A stretch of 64,000 nucleotides of DNA from Patescibacteria group bacterium (GTDB lineage Bacteria > Patescibacteriota > Patescibacteriia > Patescibacteriales > JBAZCA01): assembly GCA_041671125.1 (NCBI GenBank), contig JBAZCA010000001.1:72120-136119 (forward strand), given 5' to 3'. A program made the position numbers and the translations under genes. How positions within the stretch are numbered: the stretch's first letter is position 1; each line of letters begins with the position of its first letter. Below are positions 460-63,088 of the stretch, piece after piece. The notes beneath the pieces were generated by a model. The model saw only the letters and a list, made by a program, of their open reading frames with translations, did no database searches and was not told the origin of the DNA.

Positions 460-641
460 ATTTTTCGCTTATAGCATAAATATAGCAAAGGATGCATTAA
501 CAGTCAATGAATAAAAACCGTTCAAACTTTTTCCAATCTCAACATAACTATTATTAATATCTACGGTTCAAGTATTTTATCAGCGTCCTCAGTGATAACC
601 TGACTACCGGCCGACAGGTCAGCGGTTCAGACAATTTTCCC

Positions 642-700
642 AAAAAAAAGCGAGGCGAGGTCAGAATGATCGGTGTATTGATCATCCTGAACCTCGCCTC
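642..700 (-). terminator. Rho-independent terminator of the 737..1411 gene
   Basis: Arms gaggcgaggtcagaatgatc / gatcatcctgaacctcgcctc. On the minus strand they are followed by a U8 run (A-run 642-649). Confidence 0.8.
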
Positions 701-736
701 TTCGTGTTGCAGCTCCGTCCGAGCATTTACGACCTA

Positions 737-1411
737 CTAGAGGTCATCAACGCTTTTCAGGCCGCCGCCGCCCTTTTTCTGCGCCTCGCGGATGAGATCC
801 TGGTGGGCGTCCCAGGCGACCTTCCAGCCCTTCAAACCCATAATCGACTTCACAGAAGATACTATTTCGCCAGCAACAACGGCCATCAGCTTGTGTTTAT
901 GGCCGGTAGGGTGCTTTCGATCAGCCTTAGCGAAGTAAATTTCGTTCGTCCAGGCCGGAAGGATGAATCCGCCGTCGCTGGTTTGTGCCTGAAAGGCACA
1001 CAGCTTCGGTACTCCGGATTTGGTCGGGTTGGTAAACTTAAAAGTCACCGACCCTACACCATTTGCCGGAATAGTGGCGGAAGCAAACTCCGTTCCGGCA
1101 TGACTACCATCAGCATTAAAGTAGTCCATTCTGGCGCTCACTGATTCTCCCCCCGAAAAAAACGAAGGATCCTCGTGAACGTAATTGCCATTCGCGTCCA
1201 CCGGTGGCTTGCCCACGTACCGCAGGTGGCCACCCCTGGAGTTTGCATCCCCGGCGGATGCTGTGATAGTGAGAACAATCTCGCTGGCCGTGGCGGCGAC
1301 GACGTTCCGGTTCCCCGAATCGTCACTGCCCGCCAACTCTCCGCTCCAAGCCACCATGGGGGCGGCCAAGCAGAGCACCATTGCCAAAAACACACTCAAT
1401 AACCGGCTCAT
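737..1411 (-). CDS. Secreted hypothetical protein
   Basis: Signal-peptide-like N-terminus MSRLLSVFLAMVLCLAAPMVAWS. AGGAGG lies 5 nt upstream of the ATG. No recognisable domain. Visibly GC-richer than the core genes. Confidence 0.6.
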   Translation of the reverse strand: MSRLLSVFLAMVLCLAAPMVAWSGELAGSDDSGNRNVVAATASEIVLTITASAGDANSRGGHLRYVGKPPVDANGNYVHEDPSFFSGGESVSARMDYFNADGSHAGTEFASATIPANGVGSVTFKFTNPTKSGVPKLCAFQAQTSDGGFILPAWTNEIYFAKADRKHPTGHKHKLMAVVAGEIVSSVKSIMGLKGWKVAWDAHQDLIREAQKKGGGGLKSVDDL

Positions 1412-1496
1412 GAAAACCTCCTATGATTGAGCCAAGGGTCAAGAGAAAGCCTCCCACGAGAACATCTCGCGCTCAGCCTTCCCTGATTCACTGCCT

Positions 1497-1646
1497 CTTA
1501 GTAAGCAGGCGACTGAAATCAATGATCAATTATCAATTTACAATGATCAATGAAATTTTTGATTAAATTTCCAAAATAAATTGAAAATTTAATCATTGAA
1601 AATTCATTGTAAATTGATCATTGATTTAACCCATCTGCCTACTAAG
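1497..1646. repeat. Long AT-rich imperfect inverted repeat, copy 1 of the 'tcaatgatcaattatcaatttacaatgatcaatgaa' family
   Basis: Outer arms cttagtaagcagg / cctactaag. Inner arms pair as ...aatgatcaat...caatgaa / ttcattg...attgatcatt. The 36-nt core 1519-1554 is identical to 14174-14209. Confidence 0.85.
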
Positions 1647-1943
1647 ATTATTTTAAAAGAACATAGCTTCAGACAATTAGACTCATCTGAAATTATTTTC
1701 TTTCAAACCGTTACGAATAGCGCGGTAAAAAAGTGTACTTAGGCGGCCGAAAATGAATGAATCATCCCGACCGCCCTTATGTTAAGCCCAGCGAACCGGG
1801 CAGATTAACTGCTAAATCTTAAACGTCCATCCGTAGCTCCAAAACTGCCCTTGTAGATTAGCGGCAGTGCCCGAATGACCCGTTTTTAAAATGTTTAAAG
1901 AACAGTCTCTCTCCAGCCCGAAAGCCGGAAAAAGAAGCTTTCG

Positions 1944-3722
1944 CTACTTATCACCGATTGGGTAGCTAAATGAATCTACCCCTTCAGGATTTATCGGCGA
2001 AATTCCTCCGCCCTGGCTAGCAACTTCGGCCAAGGCATCCTGCTGTGCCTGCGTCTTGAGTTGGCACTGGCCGTCGTCGCAAGCAGGTGCGGCAGACAGA
2101 GGCAGTGTCTTAGCGGCTTTGCCCGCAACAGGAAAAGTTGTGATCAGCCCTTGAGGGATGTCCTCGTCAGACTTGCCTTCCCCTTTAATCAGCCGGTAAA
2201 TCTTAACCGGATTTACCTGGGCGGTCAACCCGATGCCGGTTGCGTTACTTACTTCGCCGCCTTTCTTATAGCTGGCGGCGCTGCCTTTAACTCCGATGCC
2301 AAAGGCCTTGTCAAAAAAATTGACATACAGTTTGCCGATGCCAACTTTCCGTTCTGGGCCAAATTTTCCGTAGACATCAGCAGTCAAAGTAATCTGCTTT
2401 TTGTCTCCGAACGATACCAGGTCAGCCTCGGCGGCTACGAACGGCCCTTCGTAGCTGGCCTGCTCGGCGGCTAGCCGAGTGACTCTGCCGGTCTTGTCAG
2501 TAAAAGTTGATTTTCCTCGGCTATTGAGCACATGCTCGTAGCCGAGGGTGACCTTATATTCCGAAAGATACTTCTCGTCCTTTCGTGAATAATCGGCCAA
2601 ACCGACCTCACCAACTAGACTATCCCGGTTGAAAGACGACTTTGATTCTCCCGCGGAGTCGGACATAGACATCTTGTCCCAACCCCAGAGGTATCCGAGC
2701 CGGGTAAACGGCTCGCGTCCGCTCGGTGTCATCATCCGGGCTTCGGCGCCGAGGGTAAACTCGCCGCCGTGGAAATTAACCGGAGACTTCACGACACCCT
2801 TGGGGTCGTTCCACTGGCCGGTGTAACCCGAGAGGCGAGTGTACGGACCTGCTGAGTACTTATTTCCCCAGCGGTCGGTGCCGACCTCCCAGCGAACCGC
2901 GCCATAGGTCCAAAAACTAGTGTCGTTGGCGCCGTCGGAGTACCAGGTTCTGTCAGCCCCACCGACTACGTCAACTTGGGGCTTCCTGATGACCTCACTG
3001 TACTGCTTTACTATTTCCTCAGGCGCGCTTGGCGGAGGGGGTGGTGGCAGTGGAGGTGGAGGAGGGATTATTTTCAAAAGTTGCAGGTAAATATTGTTGC
3101 AACTTTTTCCCTCTATTACCCTCAGCGAATAATCCTCGTTCAGAGGAACAACTGCTTTGGGGCCCTTGCTCCCTTTCTCTAGCCGGGTTTTAGTCCAGCC
3201 CTGAGCGCTCTTTCCATAGGTCACGACGGCATAAATCTGGCCGTCAATTTCAACCGTCTGGGTCGAGCTTTCAAGGGCGTTGACCATCCGTTCAACAGTT
3301 GCATTGGACAAATTAACCGGCAACCGCGCCTCCTGAAGACTCTTAGGGAGCTGTTCCAAGGCGGCTTTCACCGCTTCGCTCCTAGACAGCGTGGTCGGAT
3401 TTTCACCCGCCACGGTTTGTGTTAACACCAGTGGCCTCGGAAGCTCTAATTGCTGGCCAGTAAACACCCACAACTTCGGGTGAGTTACTTGACTTTTCCA
3501 GCCAGCCAGAGCTCGGATGCGTTTCGGAGATGCCGAATCAGAGTAATTTTGCTGATATATTTTACCCAGCGTATCACCCTTTTTCACGGCGTATTTCTCC
3601 TCCGTCTGTACCTGAGGCTCAACGACAACAACTTGCTCATCTTTCCCGTCCTCGGCGAGGACGGGATGAACAAGCGCGATTGCCAAGGCAATCGCCAAGA
3701 TGATCTTGAGAAACTTACTCAC
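1944..3722 (-). CDS. Secreted LysM-domain protein with proline-rich linker and beta-rich C-terminal domain
   Basis: GTG start preceded by AAGGAGG. Signal peptide ends ...VHPVLA. LysM-like segment YAVKKGDTLGKIY...FTGQQLELP. Linker PPPPPLPPPPPPS. The C-terminal ~330 aa show an alternating strand-like pattern. Confidence 0.65.
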   Translation of the reverse strand: MSKFLKIILAIALAIALVHPVLAEDGKDEQVVVVEPQVQTEEKYAVKKGDTLGKIYQQNYSDSASPKRIRALAGWKSQVTHPKLWVFTGQQLELPRPLVLTQTVAGENPTTLSRSEAVKAALEQLPKSLQEARLPVNLSNATVERMVNALESSTQTVEIDGQIYAVVTYGKSAQGWTKTRLEKGSKGPKAVVPLNEDYSLRVIEGKSCNNIYLQLLKIIPPPPPLPPPPPPSAPEEIVKQYSEVIRKPQVDVVGGADRTWYSDGANDTSFWTYGAVRWEVGTDRWGNKYSAGPYTRLSGYTGQWNDPKGVVKSPVNFHGGEFTLGAEARMMTPSGREPFTRLGYLWGWDKMSMSDSAGESKSSFNRDSLVGEVGLADYSRKDEKYLSEYKVTLGYEHVLNSRGKSTFTDKTGRVTRLAAEQASYEGPFVAAEADLVSFGDKKQITLTADVYGKFGPERKVGIGKLYVNFFDKAFGIGVKGSAASYKKGGEVSNATGIGLTAQVNPVKIYRLIKGEGKSDEDIPQGLITTFPVAGKAAKTLPLSAAPACDDGQCQLKTQAQQDALAEVASQGGGISPINPEGVDSFSYPIGDK

Positions 3723-4623
3723 TTGCTTGCCCTCCTTTCAGATGTTTACCATATTTTTTCTTCCAGACGGCCTGATCATCATCGTACTGCTGAAGCCGTC
3801 TAAGATAAGCCTCATCGGCCTGGGGGTTTGCCGGTGCTTGGCGCTCGGACTTGAGGTCGCGGAGCACCGATTTAAACCGGGTGTCCGGGGCAGTATCATA
3901 CCCCGGCTGACTAAGGTCGGCGGATCCGACCATTTCCATCAGAATCCCCAGAACCCGACCGCCAGCTATGCTGGCAAGACCCATAGGTCCTGCAGATGCA
4001 GCGGCGGCGTCTTCTGTAGATACGCTACCAATCCGCTCGAGTATTCGCTCTCCTAGTCCTGGGAATTTGAGCCTGGAGATGGATTCGATAATTCCGGCCA
4101 ATTCGGCCATGAGCTCTTTGTGACGCTCACTGCCGAACTCAACCCACTCAATCTTTACCTCAGGGTATTGATTGATTGGGCGGATATGCTTCCAGTTGAA
4201 TCTGGGCATGCCGGTGCCAAAAACCAGTTGCGCATCCGGCGCATACTGGTGTTCGGACGACCTGGAGTTGATGTAGGCCTGCCGGTTCCAGTCCCGGCCT
4301 TTAACATCAATGACCCAGAGGAGGGGTTGGCTCCCTCTCATGATATCAAGGCCACCGACACTTTCCTTCCCAGGCTTATCATCTTTCTCGTCGTTCCGAA
4401 AGATAATATTATGGGCTACTCCCCCGTCGACAACTTCACTCCTAAAAAGGAGTTCGTGCTCGGGAATCAAGACGGAGTAGTATCCCTTTGCGTTGCCCAT
4501 GTTTTTGAAATCCTGGGGGAGGCTATAAAGCTCATTTTTTCCCATCCGCCCGGTGGCACAGCCACTGAGCAGGGTTCCAATTGCCAAAAGTACCAGAATC
4601 CGTAAAACAACTTTCACTTTCAT
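3715..4623 (-). CDS. Lipoprotein, function unknown
   Basis: Lipobox LLSGC after a hydrophobic N-terminus. GAGGAGGAAGG directly upstream of the ATG. 8-nt overlap with the downstream LysM gene suggests translational coupling. Confidence 0.65.
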   Translation of the reverse strand: MKVKVVLRILVLLAIGTLLSGCATGRMGKNELYSLPQDFKNMGNAKGYYSVLIPEHELLFRSEVVDGGVAHNIIFRNDEKDDKPGKESVGGLDIMRGSQPLLWVIDVKGRDWNRQAYINSRSSEHQYAPDAQLVFGTGMPRFNWKHIRPINQYPEVKIEWVEFGSERHKELMAELAGIIESISRLKFPGLGERILERIGSVSTEDAAAASAGPMGLASIAGGRVLGILMEMVGSADLSQPGYDTAPDTRFKSVLRDLKSERQAPANPQADEAYLRRLQQYDDDQAVWKKKYGKHLKGGQASE

Positions 4624-4634
4624 AACCTTCCTCC

Positions 4635-5213
4635 TCAGACTTTCTCAGCCGCCTCACAGGCGGCATTGGCTTCAATGCTCACGGCCTTTGGGTCAGCTAC
4701 GACCCTCTGGCCGATCTCCCGGAGTTCTTCTTCGCGAAGCAACGTTGCGGTCGCCTCAACGAGAGAGCCCTCTCTCTTTTGCCAGAATTTCCGAAGCCCG
4801 CGACGGAGCTCTTTTAAAATCTCGCTCCGCGATTTGGGCTTCTGGTCATCCGGCCAAAGCGGACTCATATACCGCCCGGGAGAAACTTCTAAAACTTCTG
4901 CCTCCCAGTTTACCATCCGGACTTCACCGGGCTCAAGACCCGACTGATCCGTATCCGCGATTTCAAATGGAATAGTTACTATTCGCGGAAACTCGGCAAC
5001 CCCAGAGACTCCATTTCCTTCGACTATGGGCAGACCGCCCTCCCGCACCTTCCAACATACATACAACAGAAGGGGCAGAATTACGACCAACCCGTAAACG
5101 GCCGCAAAGTAAAGGCGACCGCCATTCTCCCACCATGAGGTGGGCGTCACAGCCACGCTCAAGCCGATAAAACCGACGAGCGCGGCCACCGTTACCGGAA
5201 GACGCTTTTGCAT
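4635..5213 (-). CDS. Membrane protein (two N-terminal TM segments), function unknown
   Basis: TM-like stretches VTVAALVGFIGLSVAV and YFAAVYGLVVILPLLLYV. First gene of the GC-richer four-gene minus-strand cluster. Confidence 0.55.
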   Translation of the reverse strand: MQKRLPVTVAALVGFIGLSVAVTPTSWWENGGRLYFAAVYGLVVILPLLLYVCWKVREGGLPIVEGNGVSGVAEFPRIVTIPFEIADTDQSGLEPGEVRMVNWEAEVLEVSPGRYMSPLWPDDQKPKSRSEILKELRRGLRKFWQKREGSLVEATATLLREEELREIGQRVVADPKAVSIEANAACEAAEKV

Positions 5214-5599
5214 CTTCTTCCGCCTTTCTCCCGGAACCTACCGGGTGTCAGGTTGCCGGTACCCGAACCACGGGTTTTCACTTCCGAACCTACGGACGCG
5301 AAATTACCGGCATGTTACTCTAATAAACTTCACCTATATCATCACAGCGCCGAAGCGCTGATGATCCTAAAATTGTCAAAGAAGCAATTTCCTCCCTTAC
5401 CTTCAGTCTTTAATAGAGATTGCCACCCGGTAAAACACCTAGCGGCTTACTTTTAAAGCGCGAGGGCAAAGAAAAAATAAATTTAACTCAACTTTATTAA
5501 TTTACCTTGAATTTCGCAGTATACTATAAACACCCAATACTGACAATTTAACACATTACCTTAGCAGATTTCAGCCTAACCGTCAAGGCCCTGAAAATA

Positions 5600-5624
5600 C
5601 AAAAAAGCGCCTAAATTAGGCGCT
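5600..5624 (-). terminator. Rho-independent terminator of the 5678..6712 gene
   Basis: Palindrome agcgcctaaattaggcgct (5606-5624), followed on the minus strand by a U6 run. Confidence 0.8.
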
Positions 5625-5677
5625 AATATTAAATAAGTTCATATTTTTTAAAACTACTTCCTGTCTATTAATACCCC

Positions 5678-6712
5678 TTACATTAAATTCTCCATGCTCC
5701 CCCGGCTTAAAATATCCTCAATCCGCGGGCGAGTTTCAGCGCGAAATCTTTCGTCTTCCAGAAAAACGGCAGAACCGGAACCATATTGGTCGCGACTACC
5801 TTCGCTGTCCTGAGCGTCCGCGTTTTTAGCCGCGCCAGACTGATCCGGATTTTCAAAAGCCATATTTCGGTTCGCCCGGCCAGTCTGGATATTAAATTCA
5901 TCGGACCGGATAAAACCGGAACCTTCTCCCTGAGCTTCCGCGCGAAGGCTTTCGCTTTGTCCAGGATAATTTTGTCCTTCTTTTTTAGCCGTAAGTACAC
6001 TAGCAAGGCTATGCCAATTATTTTCTTCGCGGCCAGGATTATTAAGAGTATTTTCATAATTTTTTCTCCGGTTAGTTTTTCCTTTCGGCCAAAAAGACAA
6101 GTCGTACTTTTCTTCCGGAAAAAGATAAATATAAGTAAAAGCGATTACGAGACCGATTATAAAAGCCAGACTGAGGTTAAGCGGCAGGTTCGGGCGGACA
6201 GGCCAGTCGGAAACTGCGGGTTTATCAATTACTTTTAATACCACATTTTCCCCGCCGCCGTGGTAATTTTGGTTTTTAGTCACTAAAACAAAATTGATCG
6301 CCCGGGCAATTTTTTCCGCCTCAGCGCGATTCGGATGAAAAACGCTTATATTAATCATTCCCGAATCAAGCCCTGGGCGGGCTTCAGCGGTTTCGCCCCA
6401 TTTTTTTAAAATATCCTTATTATTTTTCTCTTCGCTAAAATATTCCTCATTAATATTAAAGCCGGATTGCAAAACTTCGCCGTAGAATGAATCCGATTTT
6501 ACCACTTCGGCCAAAACCGAGCTTAAGTATTCGTTGGATCGGTTGATGGAATAAATATCGGTTCCGGCCGGAAATTTCTGGTAAACAAGGATTTTGCTGT
6601 CAGCGCCGTATTTAAACCCCCTGATAAGGCTTCCACCCAATCCGAAGATCAATAATAATAGCACCAGCGTTATGATTGTCCCTTTTTTTCTTTTAATCAG
6701 GTTGATGTCCAT
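5678..6712 (-). CDS. Wzz/polysaccharide co-polymerase-like chain-length determinant protein with disordered C-terminal tail
   Basis: N-terminal TM (IITLVLLLLIFGLGG). Second TM preceded by the proline motif PVRPNLPLNLSLAFIIGLVIAF, as in PCP/Wzz proteins. Confidence 0.55.
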   Translation of the reverse strand: MDINLIKRKKGTIITLVLLLLIFGLGGSLIRGFKYGADSKILVYQKFPAGTDIYSINRSNEYLSSVLAEVVKSDSFYGEVLQSGFNINEEYFSEEKNNKDILKKWGETAEARPGLDSGMINISVFHPNRAEAEKIARAINFVLVTKNQNYHGGGENVVLKVIDKPAVSDWPVRPNLPLNLSLAFIIGLVIAFTYIYLFPEEKYDLSFWPKGKTNRRKNYENTLNNPGREENNWHSLASVLTAKKEGQNYPGQSESLRAEAQGEGSGFIRSDEFNIQTGRANRNMAFENPDQSGAAKNADAQDSEGSRDQYGSGSAVFLEDERFRAETRPRIEDILSRGSMENLM

Positions 6713-10813: not shown

Positions 10814-11344
10814 TCAGCTTGTTTTTTTCTCTTCAACTGCCTTAAGGACATAAACCAAATTCCTTAAATTCCCGGCCAAAGCGTTAACGAAGCCTGAAAC
10901 AGGAGCGTTAATGGAACCAACGATTTTCGCGTAAAGTTCGGTTTTGGACGGAAGGGTGGCTAGCATTTTTACCTCTTCGGCGGCCAGCGTTTTCCCTTCA
11001 AGGATACCGGCTAAAAATTCCAGCTTGCCTTCTTTTTCCTTTATGAACTTACTCGCTTCTTTGACCGGCGCCACTTCATCGCCGTAGCCAAAGATGATTC
11101 CGACCTGGCCTTCAAGGTTTTTCGCGTCAACCCCTTTAATCCCTGCGTCGGCGAGCGCCAGGTTGATTAAAGTCTTTTTGGCGACCAAAAATTCGCCGGA
11201 CTCTTTCCTTAAATCAGAACGCAATTTTTCGCTCTCTTCCACGGTCATGCGGCTGTAGCGGGCAAAAAATAATGATTTTGATTTTTTAACTTTTTCTTTT
11301 AATGTCCTTAAAATCTCGCTCTTTTGTAATCTGGTTTTAGGCAT
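10814..11344 (-). CDS. rplJ: 50S ribosomal protein L10
   Basis: 176 aa directly upstream of rplL. Typical L10 N-terminus (KSEILRTLKEKVKKSKSLFFARYSRMTVEESEKLR). Confidence 0.93.
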   Translation of the reverse strand: MPKTRLQKSEILRTLKEKVKKSKSLFFARYSRMTVEESEKLRSDLRKESGEFLVAKKTLINLALADAGIKGVDAKNLEGQVGIIFGYGDEVAPVKEASKFIKEKEGKLEFLAGILEGKTLAAEEVKMLATLPSKTELYAKIVGSINAPVSGFVNALAGNLRNLVYVLKAVEEKKTS

Positions 11345-12979: not shown

Positions 12980-13046
12980 AGCTTATAAATTTCAAATATC
13001 AAAATCAAAATGGAAAATAACAGATTAAAATTTTAAATTATTTTAT

Positions 13047-13132
13047 CGTCATCCTGAGCGTAGCGAAGGATCCCGTGAATAGAGCTATTACCACGAGATT
13101 CTTCCCCGCCGATTCGGCGGGTCAGAATGACG
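13047..13132. repeat. Structured ~85-nt palindromic repeat, copy 1 (MITE/REP-like)
   Basis: The first 52 nt (gtcatcctgagcgtagcgaaggatcccgtgaatagagctattaccacgagat) are identical to 46757-46808. The ends pair (gtcatcctgag / gtcagaatgac). Confidence 0.85.
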
Positions 13133-14167: not shown

Positions 14168-14325
14168 AATTAATCAATGATCAATTATCAATTTACAATG
14201 ATCAATGAATTTTCAATTTTTCAATTAATCAATGAACTAAAAATTCGTTTGAAAATTAAATAATTGCTTAATTGAAAATTTACCTGCCTGCCGGCAGGCA
14301 GGTTGAAAATTGATCATTGATAATT
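14168..14325. repeat. AT-rich inverted repeat (family copy 2) enclosing a GC palindrome
   Basis: 36-nt core 14174-14209 is identical to 1519-1554. 3' arm ttgaaaattgatcattgataatt. Embedded palindrome acctgcctgccggcaggcaggt at 14282-14303. Confidence 0.85.
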
Positions 14326-18083: not shown

Positions 18084-19004
18084 TTACAGCGGACTTTTTA
18101 TTTTTTCTAAAACATTTCCCGCCACCTTGGTATAAATTTGCGTCGTTTCCAGTTTAGCATGACCGAGGAGTTCCTGGATATACCTGATGTCGGTACCATT
18201 TTCCAGTAAATGCGTGGCAAAGCTGTGGCGCAGGCAGTGACAGGAAGCATGTTTTTTCACGCCGGATTTTTTTAAGGCATTGGAAAAAACTTTCTGCGCT
18301 GATCGCTCGGTTAACCGGTTCTTTTTACTTCCAGTCTCCGCGCCGCCATTTTTCAATTTTTCATCCACCGTTCCGGAATTCGCGTTTAGCACCCGGCTTC
18401 TCTCGCTTTCAAAAACATAATCATCCGGATTTTTACGGCAGACGTATTTTTTCAGGACGCCAATCATCTTTTCCGACATAATAGTTATCCGGTCTTTCTT
18501 GCCTTTGCCGGCGCGGATAAAAAGCATCATCCGGTCAAAATCAAGATCTTTGACTTTCAGCTTAACCGCCTCGGACACTCTTAATCCGGAGGAGTATATC
18601 AGTCCGAGCAGGAGCTTATGCTTCACATTCTGTATTGTCCCCAGTATTTTTTTAACTTCCTCTTTACTTAAGACTTCCGGCAGTTTTTTCGGCGTTTTTG
18701 CCCGCGGAATATTCATGAAAAACCGTCGGCAAAGAATTTTTTCAAAATAGAATTTCAGGGCGCTATAGGCGGTGTTCAGGGTGGATGCTGATTTGCCGTC
18801 ATCCGCCATTTTTTCAAGATAACCGCGGATATTCTCCGAAGTTACGTTTTTCGGCCCGGAATTTGCAAATCTTAGCGCGTCCGTGATATAATACAGATAA
18901 GATTTGATGGTCTTTCCGCTGAAATTACGCAATTTCATTTCCTGCTTCAGCTTTAATATCGGATCCTGGCTTGGATAATAATTCTGTTTCATACTTTGCT
19001 TCAT
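18084..19004 (-). CDS. Tyrosine recombinase, integron-integrase-like
   Basis: Catalytic set LRVSE / HCLRHSFATHLL / LLGHAKLETTQIYTKV. IntI1-like LKVKDLDFDRMMLFIRAGKGKKDR. Extra ~20-30 aa (ERSRVLNANSGTVDEKLKNGGAETGSKKNR) relative to XerC/D. Divergent from the cassette array. Confidence 0.7.
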   Translation of the reverse strand: MKQSMKQNYYPSQDPILKLKQEMKLRNFSGKTIKSYLYYITDALRFANSGPKNVTSENIRGYLEKMADDGKSASTLNTAYSALKFYFEKILCRRFFMNIPRAKTPKKLPEVLSKEEVKKILGTIQNVKHKLLLGLIYSSGLRVSEAVKLKVKDLDFDRMMLFIRAGKGKKDRITIMSEKMIGVLKKYVCRKNPDDYVFESERSRVLNANSGTVDEKLKNGGAETGSKKNRLTERSAQKVFSNALKKSGVKKHASCHCLRHSFATHLLENGTDIRYIQELLGHAKLETTQIYTKVAGNVLEKIKSPL

Positions 19005-19082
19005 ATCCCTCTTATGATTTAAAGTATCTACCGAAATTCTAGCTTATTTTAAACAACCAGTCAACGAGTTCGGATATAAGGA

Positions 19083-19089
19083 GTTAGGC
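19083..19089 (+). other. attI-like core site GTTAGGC (GTTRRRY)
   Basis: Located 79 nt from the recombinase start, on the cassette strand. TTAGGC complements the R'' box GCCTAAC of the first attC. Confidence 0.6.
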
Positions 19090-19141
19090 AAAATTGTGCT
19101 GATTTTTATTCATTAATCCTTAGCAATTAAATTTAAAACGC

Positions 19142-19723
19142 ATGAAGAAACTAACATTAATTATTTTTTTGTCTATTTTTGCGGCTATCTTTTCGGGTTG
19201 TACACAAAAGAACACTGAAACTAAAAATCTATCAAAGACTGACCCAATACAACAAACTGATGAAAAGCAAACCGTAGGATGGGTAAATTTTACAAGCCCG
19301 CTAAACGATTATACTCTGCAACACCCAAAAAACTGGATTACTGGTTCAATGGGAAAGTTATATACTACAATTAACAGCCCTGAAAACGAACAAAATAAAA
19401 AGGAGGGTGAGCAATATATGGATGATATTACAATTACTTACTATGAGAGCGGATATAATTTTGCCGGCTATTCAACTTTTATTGATTGGTTAAATGACAC
19501 CAGCAATCCTGATCGCAATATTTTCAACGTCAATAAAATTTCATTTGCTGGAATAGACGCCTGGGATATGGTAATGACCGGAAGTAGAACAGGTTATGTT
19601 ATCATGGTTGAAAATAACGAACATCTTTACCAAATCGGATTTAACAACAGGGTGTCAAAACCAAAGTTAACTAACATAGACAAAAAAATAATTAATTCGT
19701 TTAAATTTATAAACCAACAATAA
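19142..19723 (+). CDS. Cassette 1: lipoprotein, function unknown
   Basis: Signal peptide plus lipobox IFSGC. 193 aa. Followed by attC-like site 1. Confidence 0.65.
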   Translation: MKKLTLIIFLSIFAAIFSGCTQKNTETKNLSKTDPIQQTDEKQTVGWVNFTSPLNDYTLQHPKNWITGSMGKLYTTINSPENEQNKKEGEQYMDDITITYYESGYNFAGYSTFIDWLNDTSNPDRNIFNVNKISFAGIDAWDMVMTGSRTGYVIMVENNEHLYQIGFNNRVSKPKLTNIDKKIINSFKFINQQ

Positions 19724-19806
19724 AAATCAGCACAACTCAAGGGGGCGCTGCGCTTTCATTTTGGCTTTAATTTGATAAAATAATAATGAGGCTATAATGA
19801 ACCCTC

Positions 19807-19904
19807 GCCTAACAAGTGATAACCGGAAAATGCCTCAGCTCGGCATTTTCCCAAATTTGTTTTCCCTTCGGTCAAACGAACTTCGGTTATCGCTAACGTT
19901 ATAC
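19807..19904 (+). other. attC-like site 1 (98 bp)
   Basis: R'' GCCTAAC (19807-19813) and R' GTTATAC (19898-19904). Inner arms gataaccgga (19818-27) and ttcggttatc (19882-91). Central hairpin aaaatgcc/ggcatttt. Confidence 0.65.
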
Positions 19905-19939
19905 GATATGACAAAAATCCCTTTATTAGATAGATTTGC

Positions 19940-19969
19940 TTGAAAAAAGCATGGTTCTTGAGTTATAAT
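19940..19969 (+). promoter_or_regulatory. Candidate cassette-internal promoter
   Basis: TTGAAA (19940-45), 18-nt spacer, TATAAT (19964-69). Lies 20 nt upstream of the 19990 ATG. Confidence 0.45.
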
Positions 19970-19989
19970 ACAACAATTAACTAAAATAT

Positions 19990-20694
19990 ATGTTTGAAAA
20001 ATTATTAGGAAAAACAGGCTCCGCAAAAGAAGCACAAAAAGGAAATGATTTTGGTTTTGAATCTTCAATCAAGGACACGCGACAAGAAATAGACGACGTA
20101 ATAGATCCAAAAGCAACGAAACTTATCATAGAAAGAGAAGATGGTACTGCTGAAAATAGTTCATCTAAACAACGCTTCGATGTAAAGCTTTTGAATCTTG
20201 GACGAAGTCAAATTAATAAACCTTATAGCTATTATCGTTTGTCAAATTTGTCAAGAACAGATAACATTCAAGTTTTAATGAGAACTGATCAGGGTTTAAA
20301 AAATATTCGTCTTCCTGAACAGATGTTATCAAATATTGCAAGGTTCATCAGGGAAGATTCAAAACCAAGAGAAGAAAGATTTGATTGTGCTTCTTTTGCT
20401 CATCTTGTAAACGACATACCCTATGAATTTGGTAATTATCAAGCTAAAAATTGGGATATGCGTTTATTAAGCGACGAAAATAACCTTAAACCAGGTGATA
20501 CAATTGCCATAGCAAATACAGACAATCCTAATAATTTTTCAAACGGAGACATAACTCATTTCGGAATCTATTTAGGAGATAGTCTTTATCTTTCAAAGTT
20601 TGGAAATAAAGGAAAGTTAATCGTTGCGAATCTTGAAGAAATGAAAAAAGGATTTGGTGGAGACTATTTTTTTCAAGCAAATCCAAAAAAATAA
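19990..20694 (+). CDS. Cassette 2: NlpC/P60-like (papain-fold) cysteine peptidase/amidase family protein
   Basis: Cys motif RFDCASFAHLV and His motif GDITHFGIYLGDSLYLSKFG, in the order and spacing typical of NlpC/P60. No signal peptide. Confidence 0.55.
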   Translation: MFEKLLGKTGSAKEAQKGNDFGFESSIKDTRQEIDDVIDPKATKLIIEREDGTAENSSSKQRFDVKLLNLGRSQINKPYSYYRLSNLSRTDNIQVLMRTDQGLKNIRLPEQMLSNIARFIREDSKPREERFDCASFAHLVNDIPYEFGNYQAKNWDMRLLSDENNLKPGDTIAIANTDNPNNFSNGDITHFGIYLGDSLYLSKFGNKGKLIVANLEEMKKGFGGDYFFQANPKK

Positions 20695-20714
20695 GGAAGG
20701 ATTTTTGTCACATC

Positions 20715-20859
20715 GTATAACAGCGTGTATCTGGTTCGGCAGATTTGACGCAATTAGATTCAATAGGAATGTCAAATCAGCCTCTCCCAAATTTCGCAAA
20801 AAACAATTAGATTTTCAAAGGAATTTTTGCGAAACTTCAGATACACGCGAACGTTAGAC
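20715..20859 (+). other. attC-like site 2 (145 bp)
   Basis: R'' GTATAAC (20715-21) and R' GTTAGAC (20853-59). Perfect 11-bp inner arms gcgtgtatctg (20723-33) and cagatacacgc (20838-48). Additional internal stems. Confidence 0.7.
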
Positions 20860-20989
20860 AAAATGTGCTCGCTCCGCTCGCGTAATATTTCCTCTATATT
20901 TTTGAAAAGAATTTTTGGCAATTTTGCGGGTCGATAAATCAATGTCTCATAAAAAATAATCTAAGTAAATAATTAAATAAATTATATTT

Positions 20990-21208
20990 ATGCAAAAATC
21001 AAAAATATCAGGAATTTTAATGATTTCCTCGGCTATAATTCTCATAGTCTTAATAATTGGGTATGCTGTTTTATTTTCTGTTTTTGGAATCAATTCCGGT
21101 GGATCATTTTTAATGATCACCCCCCTACTTATAATCGCTATTGCCCTAATTATAGCTCTATCTTTTCTTTTACGCGCAGGAATTAAACAAATAAAAAATA
21201 AAAAATAA
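20990..21208 (+). CDS. Cassette 3: small two-TM membrane protein
   Basis: 72 aa, two hydrophobic stretches. This is the only ORF in the cassette orientation. Confidence 0.4.
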   Translation: MQKSKISGILMISSAIILIVLIIGYAVLFSVFGINSGGSFLMITPLLIIAIALIIALSFLLRAGIKQIKNKK

Positions 21209-21275
21209 TTTAACATTGCCTCATTATGAAGAATTGCCAAAAATTTTTTATTAGTACAAAATTTTTAGTTTCATC

Positions 21276-21473
21276 GCCTAACAACGCATATCTGGCTACA
21301 GGAAATTGACTTATAGATATTAATAAGGAGTGTCAATTTCCCTCCGCCCAAATTTTCATCCCTTAGTTTTGATGAAGGTTTAGGTAGAGATAATTAAACA
21401 AAGCATTGTCTGAAACAAAAGTTTATCCCGCTAAGTCGGGATGAAAACTTCAGATGATACGTAAACGTTAGAC
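21276..21473 (+). other. attC-like site 3 (198 bp, imperfect)
   Basis: R'' GCCTAAC (21276-82) and R' GTTAGAC (21467-73). Inner arms gcatatctg / cagatgatacg pair with a bulged G. Its 3' end (21448-21497) is nearly identical to that of site 2 (20835-20883). Confidence 0.5.
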
Positions 21474-21580
21474 AAAATGTGCTCGCTCCGCTCGCGATTT
21501 TCCTGAACGCGCGCGGGTGCTCCTCGTCCGGCTCTTTCGCTCGCTGCGCCTGCCTGCCGGCAGGCAGGCTCGCACACATC

Positions 21581-21587
21581 GTCTAAC
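21581..21587 (+). other. Orphan R'' box GTCTAAC of an eroded fourth cassette
   Basis: Exact complement of GTTAGAC at 21467-73. No partner R' box before tRNA-Arg. Confidence 0.4.
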
Positions 21588-21676
21588 TCGGGATATCCGA
21601 AATGCCCTCCAGCCGGTCGCTTCCTGCCTATCGGCAGGCAGGGAACCTGCAAAATAGAGTCTAGATGAAAAAATTG

Positions 21677-21748
21677 TGTCCCCGGCAGGAATCGAACCTG
21701 CATCACAAGTTCCGGAAACTTGCGTCCTATCCATTGAACGACGGAGAC
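21677..21748 (-). tRNA. tRNA-Arg (anticodon CCG)
   Basis: GTCTCCG...CGGGGACA acceptor stem. Anticodon arm CAAGT-TTCCGGA-ACTTG. T-arm GCAGGTTCGATTCCTGC. No encoded CCA. Confidence 0.9.
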
Positions 21749-29888: not shown

Positions 29889-30368
29889 CTATTTTGATAA
29901 AAACCTCGGAAGAGGGTTTTTTTGTTTCAGGGACTTTTTGTATTCTACAATAATCCGGTAATGGTCAAAAGCAAAATCATCTTTCGGCGGAAGATCGTTT
30001 AATTTGCGCCACATAACTTCCGAAACTTCATAATCCGGCGCGCCGGTCTTTTTTAACGCTTCCAATAAAAAAACAAATGCTATATTCTGCCGACCGGCTT
30101 CGTTCCGCTCGGGAGCGTCAACAATGAATAATAATTTTTGAACTTCTGCCTGATAACCGGTTTCCTCCATAACTTCCCTTTTAACCGCCTCTTCCACGCT
30201 CTCGTCATGCTCAATAAAACCGCCGGGCAGGCAATATTTTCCGCCCTGGAACATCTCCGGCGACCGCTTAACGATTAGAATTTCGTCCCCGCGCGTTAAA
30301 ATCGCGTCAACGACAGCGTGCCTCGCGTTATTAACTTCATGTCCGTTTTCAAATTTGCAAGTAATCAT
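29889..30368 (-). CDS. NUDIX hydrolase
   Basis: Nudix box GGKYCLPGGFIEHDESVEEAVKREVMEETG. I prefer ATG 30368 (MITCKF...) to the track start 30470, which overlaps the upstream gene by 86 nt. Confidence 0.85.
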   Translation of the reverse strand: MITCKFENGHEVNNARHAVVDAILTRGDEILIVKRSPEMFQGGKYCLPGGFIEHDESVEEAVKREVMEETGYQAEVQKLLFIVDAPERNEAGRQNIAFVFLLEALKKTGAPDYEVSEVMWRKLNDLPPKDDFAFDHYRIIVEYKKSLKQKNPLPRFLSK

Positions 30369-32095: not shown

Positions 32096-32175
32096 CGGAG
32101 GGTTTTTTGTTTCAGGGACTTTTTGTATTCTAAAATAATCCGGTAATGGTCAAAGGCGAATTCTTCGGCCGGAAG
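32096..32175 (-). pseudogene. Orphan 3' fragment of a NUDIX gene
   Basis: About 88% identical to 29907-29993. Translates to LPAEEFAFDHYRIILEYKKSLKQK, versus LPPKDDFAFDHYRIIVEYKKSLKQK in the intact gene. Confidence 0.75.
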
Positions 32176-35941: not shown

Positions 35942-36763
35942 CTAAAAAGATAACTTGTAGAATATATTTATAGAAGTTCCAAAGGGCTCAATTATTTTAA
36001 GAAATCTCATATCCTTTAGATCTTTATTAATTGTTGCTCTTGGAACCCCTTTTAGAACTTTCATGCAGGCTCTAATGTTAATGGAGCCCTTTATCAAAAG
36101 GCTATTTATTATTTTGATCTGTCGTTCATTTAAGGAACTAAACTTATGCCCCAATAATGTCACTTCAAAACTATTAATGGTATTTCTGAAAAGCGGGGGT
36201 TGCAGATTCCATTGATGCATTTTATCAAAAACAATATCAATTCCTCTTCCATATTCCTCTAAATAATCCAGATCCTTCAAGCGAGCGGCAATTATCGGAT
36301 TTCTGCTGAATTGAGCTTCTTTGATATTATCAATGGTCACTCCGGGAGGTAAGCACCCAGGATTCTTTATTTCTATCCTATTTTCAAAAATGTTAATCTG
36401 CGGATAAGTTTCGATGATTTTGTAATCTCTATGGATAATCGCATTGGCTATCAATTCTCTTATCGCCTCTTCTGGGTACTCATATTTTTCAACCCTTTTT
36501 GTTCCTTCAATAAAAGCCATTTTACGAATATTCTTTAAAATAAATTTATAGCTTTCATCAATTTGGTTATCGAGTGTTCCTTTAATATCAAGTTTATCTA
36601 TGATATCGCTTGAGGTATTGTTGCCCGAATATTTTACACACCTAATTGTATATCTTTCAAAAGGGTAGCGACTTAGGGGGTCTTTTTTTGAAAAGAGAAG
36701 ATAACCTGCAACCGTAGGCCTAAATTCGTGATCAAATTTTGAGATTATTCCTAAATTATTCAA
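35942..36763 (-). CDS. HATPase_c_4-like / wHTH C-terminal part of a split AlbA_2-family (Schlafen-like) protein
   Basis: HRDYKIIETYPQINIFENRIEIKNPGCLPPG...RNPIIAARLKDLDYLEEYGRGID. Only a TTG start. Begins mid-domain (PTVAGYLLF). Confidence 0.6.
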   Translation of the reverse strand: MNNLGIISKFDHEFRPTVAGYLLFSKKDPLSRYPFERYTIRCVKYSGNNTSSDIIDKLDIKGTLDNQIDESYKFILKNIRKMAFIEGTKRVEKYEYPEEAIRELIANAIIHRDYKIIETYPQINIFENRIEIKNPGCLPPGVTIDNIKEAQFSRNPIIAARLKDLDYLEEYGRGIDIVFDKMHQWNLQPPLFRNTINSFEVTLLGHKFSSLNERQIKIINSLLIKGSINIRACMKVLKGVPRATINKDLKDMRFLKIIEPFGTSINIFYKLSF

Positions 36764-37356
36764 AAGTTTCTTTTCAATGTCTTTCGAGTTAGCTCCCCTT
36801 TTTTCTGACTTTCACTCTTTTCCAACAACAATCTTATTCTTTTAACAGATAAGTCATTAATTGAAGTATTGCTTGCTTCAGATAAATCAAAAAGGAATTC
36901 CTTGGATGAAGCAACGTATGTCCTAAATTCATTGTCAGTAATTTTACGACTTGAATTTCCTTCCCTTATATATGCCCCATTAGGCAATCCAACCGGTTTA
37001 AAAAAACAAGGCATATAATCTTTCGGGCATTCAGGCACATAAACTGCCAAAATGGTTACTTTTGAAGAATATGGTATGACAAATACATCTGGACGAAGCA
37101 CAAAACTCATTTTTTTATTAAAATACTCACCCAATTTGGTTTGCATCCCATCAATGTTTTCACAACCCACTACTTCAAAATTTTGAGTTACCCCAAACAC
37201 CACAATCCCTCCTCCTCTTCGATTTGCAAAGGCCGAAATTGTTCGCCAAATATCATTCGGAATATTGGTGCGTGATGTCTTAAATTCTAAATCAGGCAAT
37301 TCGCTACAAAGACCTATTCCTAATTTAATTTTTTTCACTATATCTTTTTCTGTCAT
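36760..37356 (-). CDS. AlbA_2 (Schlafen-type DNA/RNA-binding) N-terminal part of the split gene
   Basis: ELPDLEFKTS...IWRTISAFANRRGGGIVVFGV. The stop overlaps the next ORF by 4 nt, which is consistent with a frameshift. Confidence 0.6.
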   Translation of the reverse strand: MTEKDIVKKIKLGIGLCSELPDLEFKTSRTNIPNDIWRTISAFANRRGGGIVVFGVTQNFEVVGCENIDGMQTKLGEYFNKKMSFVLRPDVFVIPYSSKVTILAVYVPECPKDYMPCFFKPVGLPNGAYIREGNSSRKITDNEFRTYVASSKEFLFDLSEASNTSINDLSVKRIRLLLEKSESQKKGELTRKTLKRNF

Positions 37357-38316: not shown

Positions 38317-38327
38317 CTTAATTTTTG

Positions 38328-38400
38328 AGCCGTTGCGCGGAATCGAACCGCGGACCTACTCCTTACCATGGAGTTGCTCTACCGGCTGAGCTACAACGGC
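38328..38400 (-). tRNA. tRNA-Thr (anticodon GGU)
   Basis: GCCGTTG...CAACGGC acceptor stem. D-arm GCTCAGCCGGTAGAGC. Anticodon arm ACTCC-ATGGTAA-GGAGT. T-arm CGCGGTTCGATTCCGCG. Confidence 0.9.
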
Positions 38401-38477: not shown

Positions 38478-39329
38478 TTACAACTCCCCGATCCTTTCTT
38501 TAAATTCCTTTAACTTCTGGTTTTCGGGGTTGGCTTTTTCCAGCCGCTTTAAGGCGTCCAGAGCGGCGATTTTATCTTTACCTATTATACTTATTTCAAT
38601 CATGGTGTCAAGGTATTTCGGATTTAACGGCTCAATTTTCAGGGCTTCTTTCATGTTCTTCGCGGCCTCATCGTAATTCTCTTTTTCGCTGAAAACCCGG
38701 GACAATTCAAAATAAACCTGGCCGCGCTCAAGGCTCAAATTTTTTAACTGTTCTTCGGAATTTTCATCCCGGCTATTTACGATGCCGGCCTCCTCGTCCT
38801 CAATGAGCTTTAAGATATGGGCGTAAGATTGCCGCGCTTCTTCATACTGTTTTTTCAGGCTGTAAAGGCCGCCGAGCTTTTTAAAAGCTTTTAAATTCCG
38901 GCTTTGGAGGGAGATAATTTCAATCAGCTTCTTTTCCGCCTCTTCGTATGATTCGGATTTTATGGCCGCGTCGGCTTCGTTTAAAAGTTCCAAAACCGGA
39001 CGGGCGGTTTTTTCTTCGTTACCGCTTTTTGTTAAATCCCGGTCCGCCCGGTATTTTTCTTTCAGGCGCAAAAGCCGGGCGAGAAGAAATGAAAAAAGTT
39101 CTCCGAGTTTCCCTCCGATGAAAGAAAATGACTTAAAAGTTTTCGCGTTCCAATAAGTAAGGTTTCTTTTTAGGCGGTTGCCGATTATCCGCTCCTTAAA
39201 GCGGCTTTCCTTTTCCGCCGGAATGCTTTCAATATCAAGGTTCGCGAGTGCCGAAAATTTCCGAACCACGATTCCGGTCATGACCGCGAGCGAAAGCAGG
39301 ATTAAAATTAAGGGGATTATGTTATACAT
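38478..39329 (-). CDS. TPR-repeat protein with N-terminal membrane anchor
   Basis: TM segment IIPLILILLSLAVMTGIVV. TPR-like repeats (YEEAEKKLIEIISL, YEEARQSYAHILKL, YDEAAKNMKEALKIEPLNPKYL). Confidence 0.7.
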   Translation of the reverse strand: MYNIIPLILILLSLAVMTGIVVRKFSALANLDIESIPAEKESRFKERIIGNRLKRNLTYWNAKTFKSFSFIGGKLGELFSFLLARLLRLKEKYRADRDLTKSGNEEKTARPVLELLNEADAAIKSESYEEAEKKLIEIISLQSRNLKAFKKLGGLYSLKKQYEEARQSYAHILKLIEDEEAGIVNSRDENSEEQLKNLSLERGQVYFELSRVFSEKENYDEAAKNMKEALKIEPLNPKYLDTMIEISIIGKDKIAALDALKRLEKANPENQKLKEFKERIGEL

Positions 39330-39330
39330 G

Positions 39331-39467
39331 ATTCAATTACCAATTATCAATTTACAATGATCAATGAATTTTTAATTACCAATTTTTCAATTTTCAAACG
39401 TTTGAAAATTTTATCATTTGGTCATTGAAAATTCATTAAAAATTGATCATTGATAATTGAAAATTAC
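39331..39467. repeat. AT-rich inverted repeat, family copy 3
   Basis: caattatcaatttacaatgatcaatgaa (39341-39368) is identical to the cores at 1527-1554 and 14182-14209. 3' arm ttgaaaattcattaaaaattgatcattgataattg. Confidence 0.85.
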
Positions 39468-46735: not shown

Positions 46736-46756
46736 GAATTAAAAAACTGTTTTTTT

Positions 46757-46836
46757 GTCATCCTGAGCGTAGCGAAGGATCCCGTGAATAGAGCTATTAC
46801 CACGAGATCCTTCGGCCTAATCGGCCTCAGGATGAC
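46757..46836. repeat. Structured ~80-nt palindromic repeat, copy 2
   Basis: Outer stem gtcatcctgag / ctcaggatgac (11 bp). Inner stem cgaaggatc / gatccttcg (9 bp). 5' 52 nt are identical to copy 1. Confidence 0.85.
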
Positions 46837-62942: not shown

Positions 62943-63088
62943 GAAAAAACAAATACGAAACTTAAAGAAAATTTAAATTTTCAATTTACAAACAATTTCT
63001 AATTTAGAAATGACTCAATTTTCTAAAATTTTAAAATTGTAAATTGATAATTAAAAATTAATTTTCTTCGCTCCGGCAAAATCTAAGA

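Follow-up and report, generated by a model that had tools for sequence, protein, structure and literature searches.

In OmpA (E. coli type) and OmpM (diderm Firmicutes and other Terrabacteria), which tether the outer membrane to peptidoglycan, one polypeptide joins a transmembrane beta-barrel to a wall-binding domain via an extended linker, and the barrel of OmpA has 8 strands. The domain inventory of the intimin/invasin inverse autotransporters (type Ve) includes a signal peptide, a periplasmic LysM domain and a 12-stranded barrel, and in classical type Va autotransporters a short helix directly precedes a 12-strand barrel. Diderm Wzy-dependent loci commonly encode an outer export component between the Wzz or polysaccharide co-polymerase (PCP) gene and the Wzy-type genes. 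In OmpM the wall-binding domain comes first and the barrel last (PMC10628300), and the same order was found in g3, the signature protein of a four-gene module from a Patescibacteria group bacterium. The module is located on the minus strand of contig JBAZCA010000001.1 (assembly GCA_041671125.1), in a stretch of 64,000 nt (positions 72,120 to 136,119) that we call the window and to which all coordinates refer. The reading that we favor, with a probability of roughly 60%, is that of a lineage-specific, wall-anchored barrel module that is attached to a surface-glycan locus and translated from Shine-Dalgarno (SD) sites. The four genes are:

4635-5213, minus strand: g1, 192 aa, two hydrophobic segments at the N-terminus
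3715-4623, minus strand: g2, a lipoprotein of 302 aa with the lipobox LLSGC
1944-3722, minus strand: g3, 592 aa, secreted, GTG start, signal peptide; the signature gene of the module
737-1411, minus strand: g4, 224 aa, secreted, signal peptide

A first-pass annotation, made from the sequence by eye, had described these genes as an envelope cluster. This label was upheld, and the coordinates of the four open reading frames (ORFs) and all quoted SD positions proved to be correct.

The structure of g3 was modelled by AlphaFold2 from an alignment of 21 family members, and the model had a mean predicted local distance difference test (pLDDT) score of 80. The following parts were distinguished:

residues 1-23: signal peptide
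3417-3632, minus strand: LysM domain, residues 31-102, pLDDT 84-92
3069-3383, minus strand: conserved alpha/beta domain, residues 114-218, with the motifs NPTT, AQGWT and CxNxYxQL, pLDDT 82-93
3024-3068, minus strand: proline-rich hinge (PPPPPLPPPPPPSAP), residues 219-233, modelled as disordered
residues 235-244: short helix preceding the barrel
2214-2978, minus strand: predicted 12-stranded antiparallel beta-barrel of outer-membrane type, residues 249-503, pLDDT mostly above 90
1947-2213, minus strand: short helix and disordered tail, residues 504-592, pLDDT 26-65

The 12 predicted antiparallel strands of the barrel are 11-21 residues long, with pLDDT mostly above 90. A Foldseek search against PDB resulted in 76 matches at E ≤ 1e-3, and all top ones were outer-membrane barrels. 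The best matches were the beta-domains of BrkA, NalP, Hbp, AIDA-I and EspP (E 1.5e-7 to 5e-6, target-normalised TM-scores 0.41-0.52), followed by FadL, intimin, OmpG and porins. When a viral structure library was searched, an autotransporter beta-domain was again the top match. Most strands showed hydrophobicity that was conserved in the family at 4-5 alternate positions, and the barrel contained 13.7% Gly and 12.9% aromatic residues. In its fold, the modelled domain agrees with a closed antiparallel barrel of at least 8 long strands that resembles solved outer-membrane barrels. The first-pass annotation had suspected a beta-barrel in the C-terminal domain, and this result strongly supported the suspicion.

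The same annotation had assigned a LysM domain to g3, which held at the level of the family only. For g3 of the window the evidence was weak (NCBIfam 1.2e-4; PHROG endolysin 1e-4 for residues 35-116), and no Pfam hit was obtained at E ≤ 1. Among the 21 aligned members, 15 matched PF01476, the best with 4.4e-13, and the family profile matched LytE and other LysM structures at 1.9e-14 (profile positions 43-95).

The g3 family is tiny. An exhaustive search of cluster representatives yielded 24 relatives among 1.84 billion clustered proteins. Those listed are 440-675 aa long except for one fragment, the 21 aligned members share one architecture, and most members of the family contain the proline-rich stretch. 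When g3, the alignment of its family or that of g2 was used as a query in word-indexed searches, nothing but the query itself or unrelated LysM proteins came back. NCBI labels the family members as 'hypothetical' or 'LysM domain-containing'.

All four genes of the module are preceded by an SD site:

5223-5232, minus strand: SD-like GGGAGAAAGG, 9 nt upstream of the ATG of g1, duplex -7.4 kcal/mol
4626-4636, minus strand: SD GAGGAGGAAGG, 2 nt from the ATG of g2, duplex -11.5 kcal/mol
3730-3737, minus strand: SD AAGGAGGG, 7 nt from the GTG of g3 and within the 3' end of g2, duplex -12.4 kcal/mol
1417-1422, minus strand: SD AGGAGG, 5 nt from the ATG of g4, duplex -10.9 kcal/mol

The first-pass annotation had contrasted these strong sites with an SD-less rest of the genome, and the contrast was real: canonical SD sites preceded 4 of 4 module genes and only 1 of the 43 other genes of the window (Fisher p = 2.8e-5). 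The energy of the duplex with the anti-SD sequence was -7.4 to -12.4 kcal/mol for the module genes compared to a host median of -1.3, and the sole non-module gene of the window that reached -7.4 was an aminotransferase gene (28581). Since only 7.5% of the 20-nt segments of the module sense strand reached -7.4, local composition does not account for the SD sites. Host start regions were AT-rich and unstructured (GC 0.28 in the upstream 30 nt, mean folding energy -5.7), whereas in the module the start regions had a GC of 0.43-0.60 and folding energies between -7 and -18. There are, therefore, two kinds of start region within one genome. The signal-peptide and lipoprotein genes at 19142, 27987, 32191 and 51294 had no SD, which speaks against SD sites as a general trait of genes for secreted proteins. 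The Wzz-like gene of the window, which is described below, also lacks an SD site.

We also tested the loci of relatives, whose genome GC ranges from 0.27 to 0.48. Here canonical GGAG or GAGG was counted at 5-10 nt from the start, after correction of three mis-called starts. A duplex energy of -7 or lower was found for about 34 of 35 module genes and for about 6 of 91 flanking genes. The equivalent of the g3 SD is located in an intergenic spacer in these relatives. Since the SD sites were kept in spite of very divergent proteins, which implies a long separation, they appear to be maintained by selection. Selection on SD sites in turn suggests a working anti-SD in these organisms, so the 16S rRNA would carry the anti-SD sequence.

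Genomic context could be recovered for 10 members of the g3 family besides the locus of the window. Where flanks existed, the gene order was Wzz/GNVR-like, a variable g1, g2, g3, g4, Wzy_C on the opposite strand, two or three radical-SAM/SPASM genes and GT4. On four short contigs (L007, L008, L015 and L016) this order could be seen in part only. The slot was the same even though the g3 proteins were only 20-35% identical, and none of the recovered contexts lay outside this neighborhood. This constancy contradicts the foreign origin that the tests proposed in the first-pass annotation had implied. Homologs of g2 were found in the equivalent position in L003, L005, L009, L010 and L011 with 23-32% identity, and g2, g4 and the Wzz-like protein each form an alignable family. 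Locus L003 also has the rplJ-rplL-(785/792 aa)-helix-turn-helix genes that lie upstream in the window. An alignment of four sequences matched one genome locus, titled 'uncultured Gammaproteobacteria' in spite of its Patescibacteria-type synteny, and one metagenome locus. The gene directly upstream of the module in the window is:

5678-6712, minus strand: Wzz/GNVR-like (PCP-like) polysaccharide co-polymerase gene, sub-threshold in Pfam (GNVR 6.9e-5, Wzz 0.0029)

A homolog of it is located at the equivalent position in L003, L005, L009, L010, L011, L014 and L015.

The window differed from its relatives in two respects. A toxin-antitoxin-like pair of a nucleotidyltransferase and a HEPN protein (NTP_transf_2/HEPN; 151-459 of the window and 13264-13974 of L001) lies between g4 and Wzy_C; as the relatives lack a pair of this kind there, it represents an insertion confined to this genome. 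In addition, the first slot of L003, L005 and L009 holds a protein to which g1 of the window is not related. One of these loci, L009 (CAZEHL010000013.1), is a MAG contig from the GTDB collection and is titled 'uncultured Gammaproteobacteria bacterium'. It shows the gene order of L003 (Wzz-like, OmpA-like, lipoprotein, g3, g4, Wzy_C, radical-SAM, GT4), and because this order is of the Patescibacteria type, the contig is probably mis-binned or mislabelled.

The g1 slot is the variable slot of the module. In L003, L005 and L009 it is occupied by a protein with a signal peptide, an OmpA-like domain, a coiled coil, a transmembrane segment and a CxxC tail; all three members matched Pfam OmpA with 3.9e-5, below the threshold (24.3 versus 27.2 bits). 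The lipoprotein g2 had no match in Pfam, NCBIfam, PHROG or among PDB sequences, and an AlphaFold2 model of it from a two-sequence alignment was unusable (pLDDT 32). The g4 family comprises proteins of 195-237 aa that are always encoded downstream of g3. An alignment over seven loci revealed invariant G, F, P, W, P, H and H positions; searches for families and structures gave no match for g4, and its profile did not match among PDB sequences.

A comparison to L008 revealed an uneven pattern of conservation. The g4 proteins are 59% identical, a repeat element is common to both loci and the g3 tails are 82% identical (residues 543-592, PACDDGQCQLK...GGGISPINPEGVDSFSYPIGDK, window 1947-2096), whereas the g3 bodies could not be aligned by BLASTP. 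The last 22 residues of g4 (HQDLIREAQKKGGGGLKSVDDL; residues 203-224, window 740-805) are identical in the two loci. The conserved tails of g3 and g4 suggest interaction or sorting signals, and a g3 body that is exchanged or evolves fast.

The first-pass annotation had judged the cluster to be distinctly GC-richer than the rest of the window, and the four genes were indeed the GC-richest as a group. Their GC was 0.525-0.561, compared to a mean of 0.451 (standard deviation 0.048, maximum 0.531) for the 43 other genes (Mann-Whitney p = 2e-5). The largest tetranucleotide distance among 4.5-kb segments was also found here, at 501-5000 (0.030 versus a mean of 0.0155, standard deviation 0.0045). The excess of 7.3 GC points consists of 5.9 points from amino acid composition and 1.5 points from synonymous choice, so about 80% stems from amino acids. 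The module proteins are enriched in Gly, Val, Pro, Gln, Trp, Ser and Ala and depleted of Ile, Phe, Lys and Asn, and every module gene ranked first of 44 when GC was predicted from amino acids. By the synonymous GC residual they ranked only 3rd to 13th of 44 (z = 0.7-1.0), and this small residual shows that codon usage is host-like. We concluded that the Gly/Val/Pro/Trp-rich make-up of these secreted proteins is the main source of the higher GC. High-expression codon bias was also considered as a cause of the GC excess but appeared unnecessary, since the synonymous shift in the window, which contains two ribosomal-protein genes, is too small to require it.

In most loci of relatives, module GC exceeded host GC by 7 to 10 points. 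It was 0.35-0.36 versus 0.20-0.29 in L011, and L014 showed no offset. Since the GC offset varies between loci and the SD sites do not, the SD sites are the universal trait of the module. Taken together, vertical inheritance within one clade of the ultra-small Patescibacteria, selection on the SD sites and a GC content driven by amino acids are strongly supported, and we hold this part of the interpretation with high confidence.

For the function of the module, we propose the following. The signal peptide would export g3 and the LysM domain would bind peptidoglycan, while the proline-rich hinge would act as a spacer that spans the wall. The C-terminal barrel may sit in an outer layer or form it, and may serve as an anchor, as a pore (channel) or as both. 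Its partners would be the lipoprotein g2 and the small secreted protein g4, joined in most relatives by an OmpA-like wall binder from the g1 slot. The position of the module hints that it probably serves the anchoring or the passage of a glycan from the neighboring locus. Translation of the module would proceed via canonical SD pairing and that of the rest of the genome would start on AT-rich, unstructured leaders; the module may use SD pairing because its own leaders are GC-richer and more structured. Insertion into a membrane or outer layer, the partnership of the four proteins and the link to glycan export or anchoring are thus suggested by the model and the gene order. A wall-tethered barrel in an outer layer, as the model would predict it, is a tentative proposal to which we assign slightly less than even odds. 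The stronger claim, that a clade of the Candidate Phyla Radiation (CPR) conserves a genuine outer-membrane-type barrel system, in which a 12-strand barrel anchored by LysM is combined with a lipoprotein and an OmpA-like wall binder at a Wzy-type glycan locus, appears doubtful at present. If it were true, either a second lipid or outer layer would be built without the known BAM machine or the barrel would be planted in the outer membrane of a host, and translation of the module would depend on a conserved SD route that is no longer used elsewhere in the genome.

Several observations weigh against this interpretation. The barrel is a prediction from an alignment of 21 sequences, the structural TM-scores were only about 0.5, and none of the 21 members matched a Pfam outer-membrane family at E ≤ 1. 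No gene of the BamA/Omp85 type was present among the ORFs screened, which cover about 72 kb with partial annotation (the window and L001). The g1 of the window had no detectable relation to the OmpA-like g1 proteins of relatives (hhalign probability 0.8%). Since neither g2 nor g4 can be assigned to a known fold or family, a complex of the four proteins is proposed from gene order alone. Neither the window nor any recovered locus of a relative contains an rRNA gene, so the anti-SD is a deduction; one survey found CCTCCT in only 48% of the 16S genes of Parcubacteria (PMC9297842). The CPR is considered to be monoderm and to have lost its OmpM-type porins (bioRxiv 10.1101/2021.05.31.446380). Finally, L003, L005, L009 and L011 showed a synonymous GC excess of 3 to 5 points beyond the effect of amino acids, and an ancient transfer into the ancestor of the clade remains a candidate for the origin of the module.

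According to this last explanation, the clade ancestor captured an outer-membrane cassette from a diderm by horizontal transfer, and donor features that persist in the module, namely its SD sites and some of its GC excess, were fixed because the expression of the operon depends on them. The diderm-typical parts (the outer-membrane-type barrel, the lipoprotein and the OmpA-like protein of relatives), the presence of SD-led, GC-richer genes in SD-poor, AT-rich genomes, the synonymous excess in several relatives and the very narrow distribution of the family would all fit such a capture. On the other side, no donor-like relative was found, all recovered contexts are of the Patescibacteria type and Pfam outer-membrane families gave no match. 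The GC of the module tracks that of the host from 0.36 to 0.57, hence the nucleotide composition has long been equilibrated. Retention of the SD sites across such divergence needs selection whatever their origin, and codon usage in the window is host-like. We therefore regard an ancient capture as unlikely, although it is the best of the alternatives. It concerns only the origin and is compatible with a present function as a wall-anchored barrel module.

Less probable still is a barrel that is directed at a host. In such a case, g3 would be anchored in the wall by LysM and the hinge would project the barrel into the outer membrane of the host for attachment or nutrient uptake, so that an outer membrane of its own would not be needed. 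This would explain an outer-membrane-type barrel in a lineage regarded as monoderm, and a wall-binding domain and a spacer are present. Between the window and L008, which are close relatives, the body of g3 varies extremely, as expected of a surface protein under diversifying selection, and in L014 a type IV pilin gene adjoins the module. The idea is, however, entirely inferential: the metagenome-assembled genome (MAG) has no known host, toxin or secretion-system genes are lacking nearby, and hypervariability is equally expected of a phage receptor or any exposed envelope protein.

The tests proposed in the first-pass annotation also implied that the cluster might be a recent foreign island or a chimeric join. 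The highest GC and tetranucleotide distance of the window, an SD usage unlike that of the rest of the genome and the toxin-antitoxin pair next to g4 could be taken to point in this direction. The synonymous usage is, however, host-like despite the deviating GC and tetranucleotides, and the gene order is conserved in the recovered related genomes. The module has no integrase or tRNA at its borders, and its presence was not patchy among the recovered contexts; it thus lacks the hallmarks of a genomic island. No relatives were found in phage, IMG/VR or PADLOC collections, and the four-sequence alignment matched no viral locus. A repeat specific to the host, described below, lies inside the cluster. 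A Logan assembly of SRR6484324 contains a 4,442-bp contig that is 100% identical to 1596-6037 of the window, so that a second assembler reproduced the junction at 5214-5680 identically. NCBI MAG assemblies under the name 'Patescibacteria group bacterium', with contigs of up to 275,724 bp, also contain the g1, g2 and g4 proteins, and the locus tags of the module proteins are WCW25_02625-02640. The stretch with the module was thus assembled independently three times. These data contradict both a recent import and an assembly artefact, and the probability that remains for this alternative is very small.

The true compositional islands of the window, 19142-21240 and 35942-37356, are found elsewhere, and atypical synonymous usage occurs at 19142-20694 and 35942-37356, outside the module. 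Unlike the module, 19142-21240 shows the features of a genomic island. It is part of a low-GC region at 18084-21748 (GC 0.26-0.33, synonymous GC residual -0.07 to -0.115), which encodes a PsbP-like lipoprotein (19142-19723), a weakly matching NlpC/P60 protein (19990-20694) and an ORF of 97 aa. The region is bordered by a tyrosine integrase gene (18084-19004) on one side and by tRNA-Arg (21676-21748) on the other. It is this region, and not the four-gene cluster, that looks like the recent integrated element of the window. The second low-GC pair at 35942-37356 (GC 0.33-0.35, synonymous residuals -0.07 and -0.10) has Schlafen/AlbA_2 and HATPase_c_4 domains in adjacent ORFs with a 4-nt overlap; tRNA-Thr is located at 38327-38400. 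The pair may be a foreign gene that is split or made up of two parts. The gene at 51294-54218 encodes a secreted protein of 974 aa that includes a right-handed beta-helix domain, and it is located in a region with the second-highest tetranucleotide distance of the window and a local reversal of GC skew (+0.245 at 52001-53000).

The weakest alternative, a remnant phage lysis cassette with the 2-TM (two-transmembrane-segment) protein as holin, the lipoprotein as o-spanin and the LysM protein as endolysin, has in its favor a superficially fitting gene order and the PHROG endolysin match of g3, and it can be dismissed, since this match is confined to LysM, a catalytic domain is missing, the proteins exceed by far the size suited to these roles, the neighborhood is free of phage genes, phage genomes and viral contigs hold no relatives and the synteny with glycan genes is conserved. 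A role as a defence system was also rejected.

The first-pass annotation had regarded all four genes as tightly packed. This applies to g1, g2 and g3, with an 11-nt gap between g1 and g2 and an 8-nt overlap of g2 and g3. It does not apply to g4, which is a separate unit located 532 nt downstream of g3, with a terminator-like hairpin and a conserved promoter-like element of its own in between. We therefore read the module as two transcription units, g1-g2-g3 and g4. The elements in and around these units are:

5606-5624, minus strand: terminator-like hairpin AGCGCCTAATTTAGGCGCT with a T run, which closes the Wzz-like transcription unit
5372-5379, minus strand: -35-like box TTGACAAT at the head of the module, from a six-locus alignment; putative promoter
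1906-1935, minus strand: terminator-like hairpin directly after the stop codon of g3
1651-1708, minus strand: conserved element GTTTGAAAGAAAATAATTTCAGATGAGTCTAATTGTCTGAAGCTATGTTCTTTTAAAA upstream of g4, from a six-locus alignment
1497-1646, minus strand: AT-rich repeat element within the leader of g4, resembling a miniature inverted-repeat transposable element (MITE) and flanked by the inverted repeat CTTAGTAGGCAG / CTGCTTACTAAG
642-700, minus strand: long GC-rich hairpin GAGGCGAGGT...ACCTCGCCTC with a long loop, followed by T8, read directly from the sequence

The TTGACAAT box would give a GC-rich leader of about 130-160 nt ahead of g1. The TTGACA core of the box was present in 5 of the 6 aligned loci, and L010 has CTTACAAT instead. 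A second promoter-like match at 5518-5546 was not conserved. The element upstream of g4 combines a -35-like TTGTCT with the inverted repeat TTTCAGA/TCTGAA, whose arms covary between loci, and a promoter-like match ahead of g4 was also obtained at 1647-1676. By its sequence, the element at 1651-1708 may be the promoter or an operator of g4, and the hairpin at 642-700 is likely the intrinsic terminator of this gene. A search for RNA families in the long leaders and the g3-g4 spacer gave no credible known RNA element, riboswitch or leader family.

The 32-nt core of the repeat in the g4 leader has an exact copy at 14174-14205 upstream of mreB and a copy with 2 mismatches at 39333-39364, and the repeat element takes the equivalent position in L008. 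A repeat of the host genome inside the g4 leader indicates that the region is embedded in this genome. The AT-rich repeat family has units of the ATTGATCATTGA type and was found at 1497-1646, 14169-14320, 39328-39460 and about 62940-63054. Its copies usually abut start codons of the host (mreB; the gene at 38478-39329), and the copy at mreB holds CTGCCTGCCGGCAGGCAGG. To judge from these features, the repeat looks like a MITE-like or promoter-carrying element.

Further repeats were seen in the window. A 70-nt intergenic repeat that contains GTCATCCTGAGCGTAGCGAAGGATC occurs at 13035-13104 and 46744-46813 with 93% identity, and a related GTCATCCTGAGG...GAAGGATC motif is present in the g3-g4 spacer of L008 (about 3150-3200 of this locus). 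Immediately downstream of two adjacent minus-strand genes, a 67-nt direct repeat of 91% identity (29915-29981 and 32100-32166) may represent a shared terminator or regulatory element. In L003, positions 1-126 match the ribosomal protein L10 leader (Rfam RF00557) upstream of rplJ, and no Rfam match at the gathering threshold was obtained upstream of rplJ of the window (10814-11344).

Current accounts of envelope evolution treat the CPR as a clean monoderm lineage without outer-membrane proteins. If our interpretation is true, a conserved wall-tethered barrel in a CPR clade would be a relic or a reinvention of an outer-layer architecture, or a device for host contact of an episymbiont. With respect to translation, the locus illustrates how one small genome combines two modes of initiation, with SD sites that selection appears to keep for one operon across genomes of 27-48% GC and AT-rich leaders at the neighboring genes. 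It would also provide a handle on the use of the anti-SD in SD-poor bacteria and on its retention in this clade. The case further shows that a raw anomaly of GC and tetranucleotides can stem from the amino acids of secreted proteins and not from foreign origin.

Selective use of SD sites is known from SD-poor bacteria, e.g., Bacteroidota, in which most genes also have AT-rich leaders without SD and a small conserved set keeps a strong SD. In contrast to that situation, the set retained here is an envelope operon and not a ribosomal-protein gene, and the anti-SD of the present organisms is deduced from the SD sites.

Like the exopolysaccharide pairs of barrel and lipoprotein (AlgE/AlgK, PgaA/PgaB, Wza with Wzc), g3 and g2 are encoded next to glycan genes, and the likeness is one of gene position only, not of structural comparison. 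Neither g2 nor g3 has sequence similarity to Poly_export/Wza or other known families, and the predicted 12-strand barrel of g3 is smaller than those of AlgE and PgaA.

The best structural resemblance of g3 is to classical type Va autotransporters, with which it has the short helix before the barrel in common. It does not belong to them, as it lacks a Pfam Autotransporter match, its barrel ends at residue 503 of 592 and not at the C-terminus, and its N-terminus consists of LysM and a domain of about 100 residues instead of a beta-helical passenger. A BamA-type gene, moreover, was not seen among the ORFs screened. The closest domain inventory is that of intimin and invasin, and the intimin beta-domain 4e1s was among the Foldseek matches (E = 4.2e-5), with a TM-score of only 0.37. 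Unlike intimin, g3 has an additional alpha/beta domain and the proline hinge between LysM and barrel, and instead of a C-terminal passenger with Ig-like or lectin domains only a disordered tail of about 90 residues; the tails of the family are short and variable. The IAT_beta profile did not match and a passenger is absent, so g3 is not an inverse autotransporter.

With OmpA, g3 shares a proline-rich hinge, and in relatives a protein with an OmpA-like domain is encoded next to it. The wall-binding domain of g3 is, however, LysM and not OmpA_C or SLH, its predicted barrel has 12 strands, and it lacks sequence similarity to both OmpA and OmpM. The OmpA_C-like domain (PF00691) is absent from g3 and from g1 of the window. 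SLH did not match in any member of the g3 family, so that with OmpM only the domain order is analogous. In addition, the organisms differ, as Patescibacteria are considered monoderm and are reported to have lost OmpM. In summary, g3 resembles OmpA, OmpM and intimin without belonging to any of them, since it lacks the defining sequence and domain features of each. In the literature that we searched we found no description of outer-membrane-type barrels in CPR/Patescibacteria. What is new is a predicted wall-tethered, barrel-type protein in an unexpected phylum, which represents a tiny unannotated family and carries an unusual and conserved translational signature.

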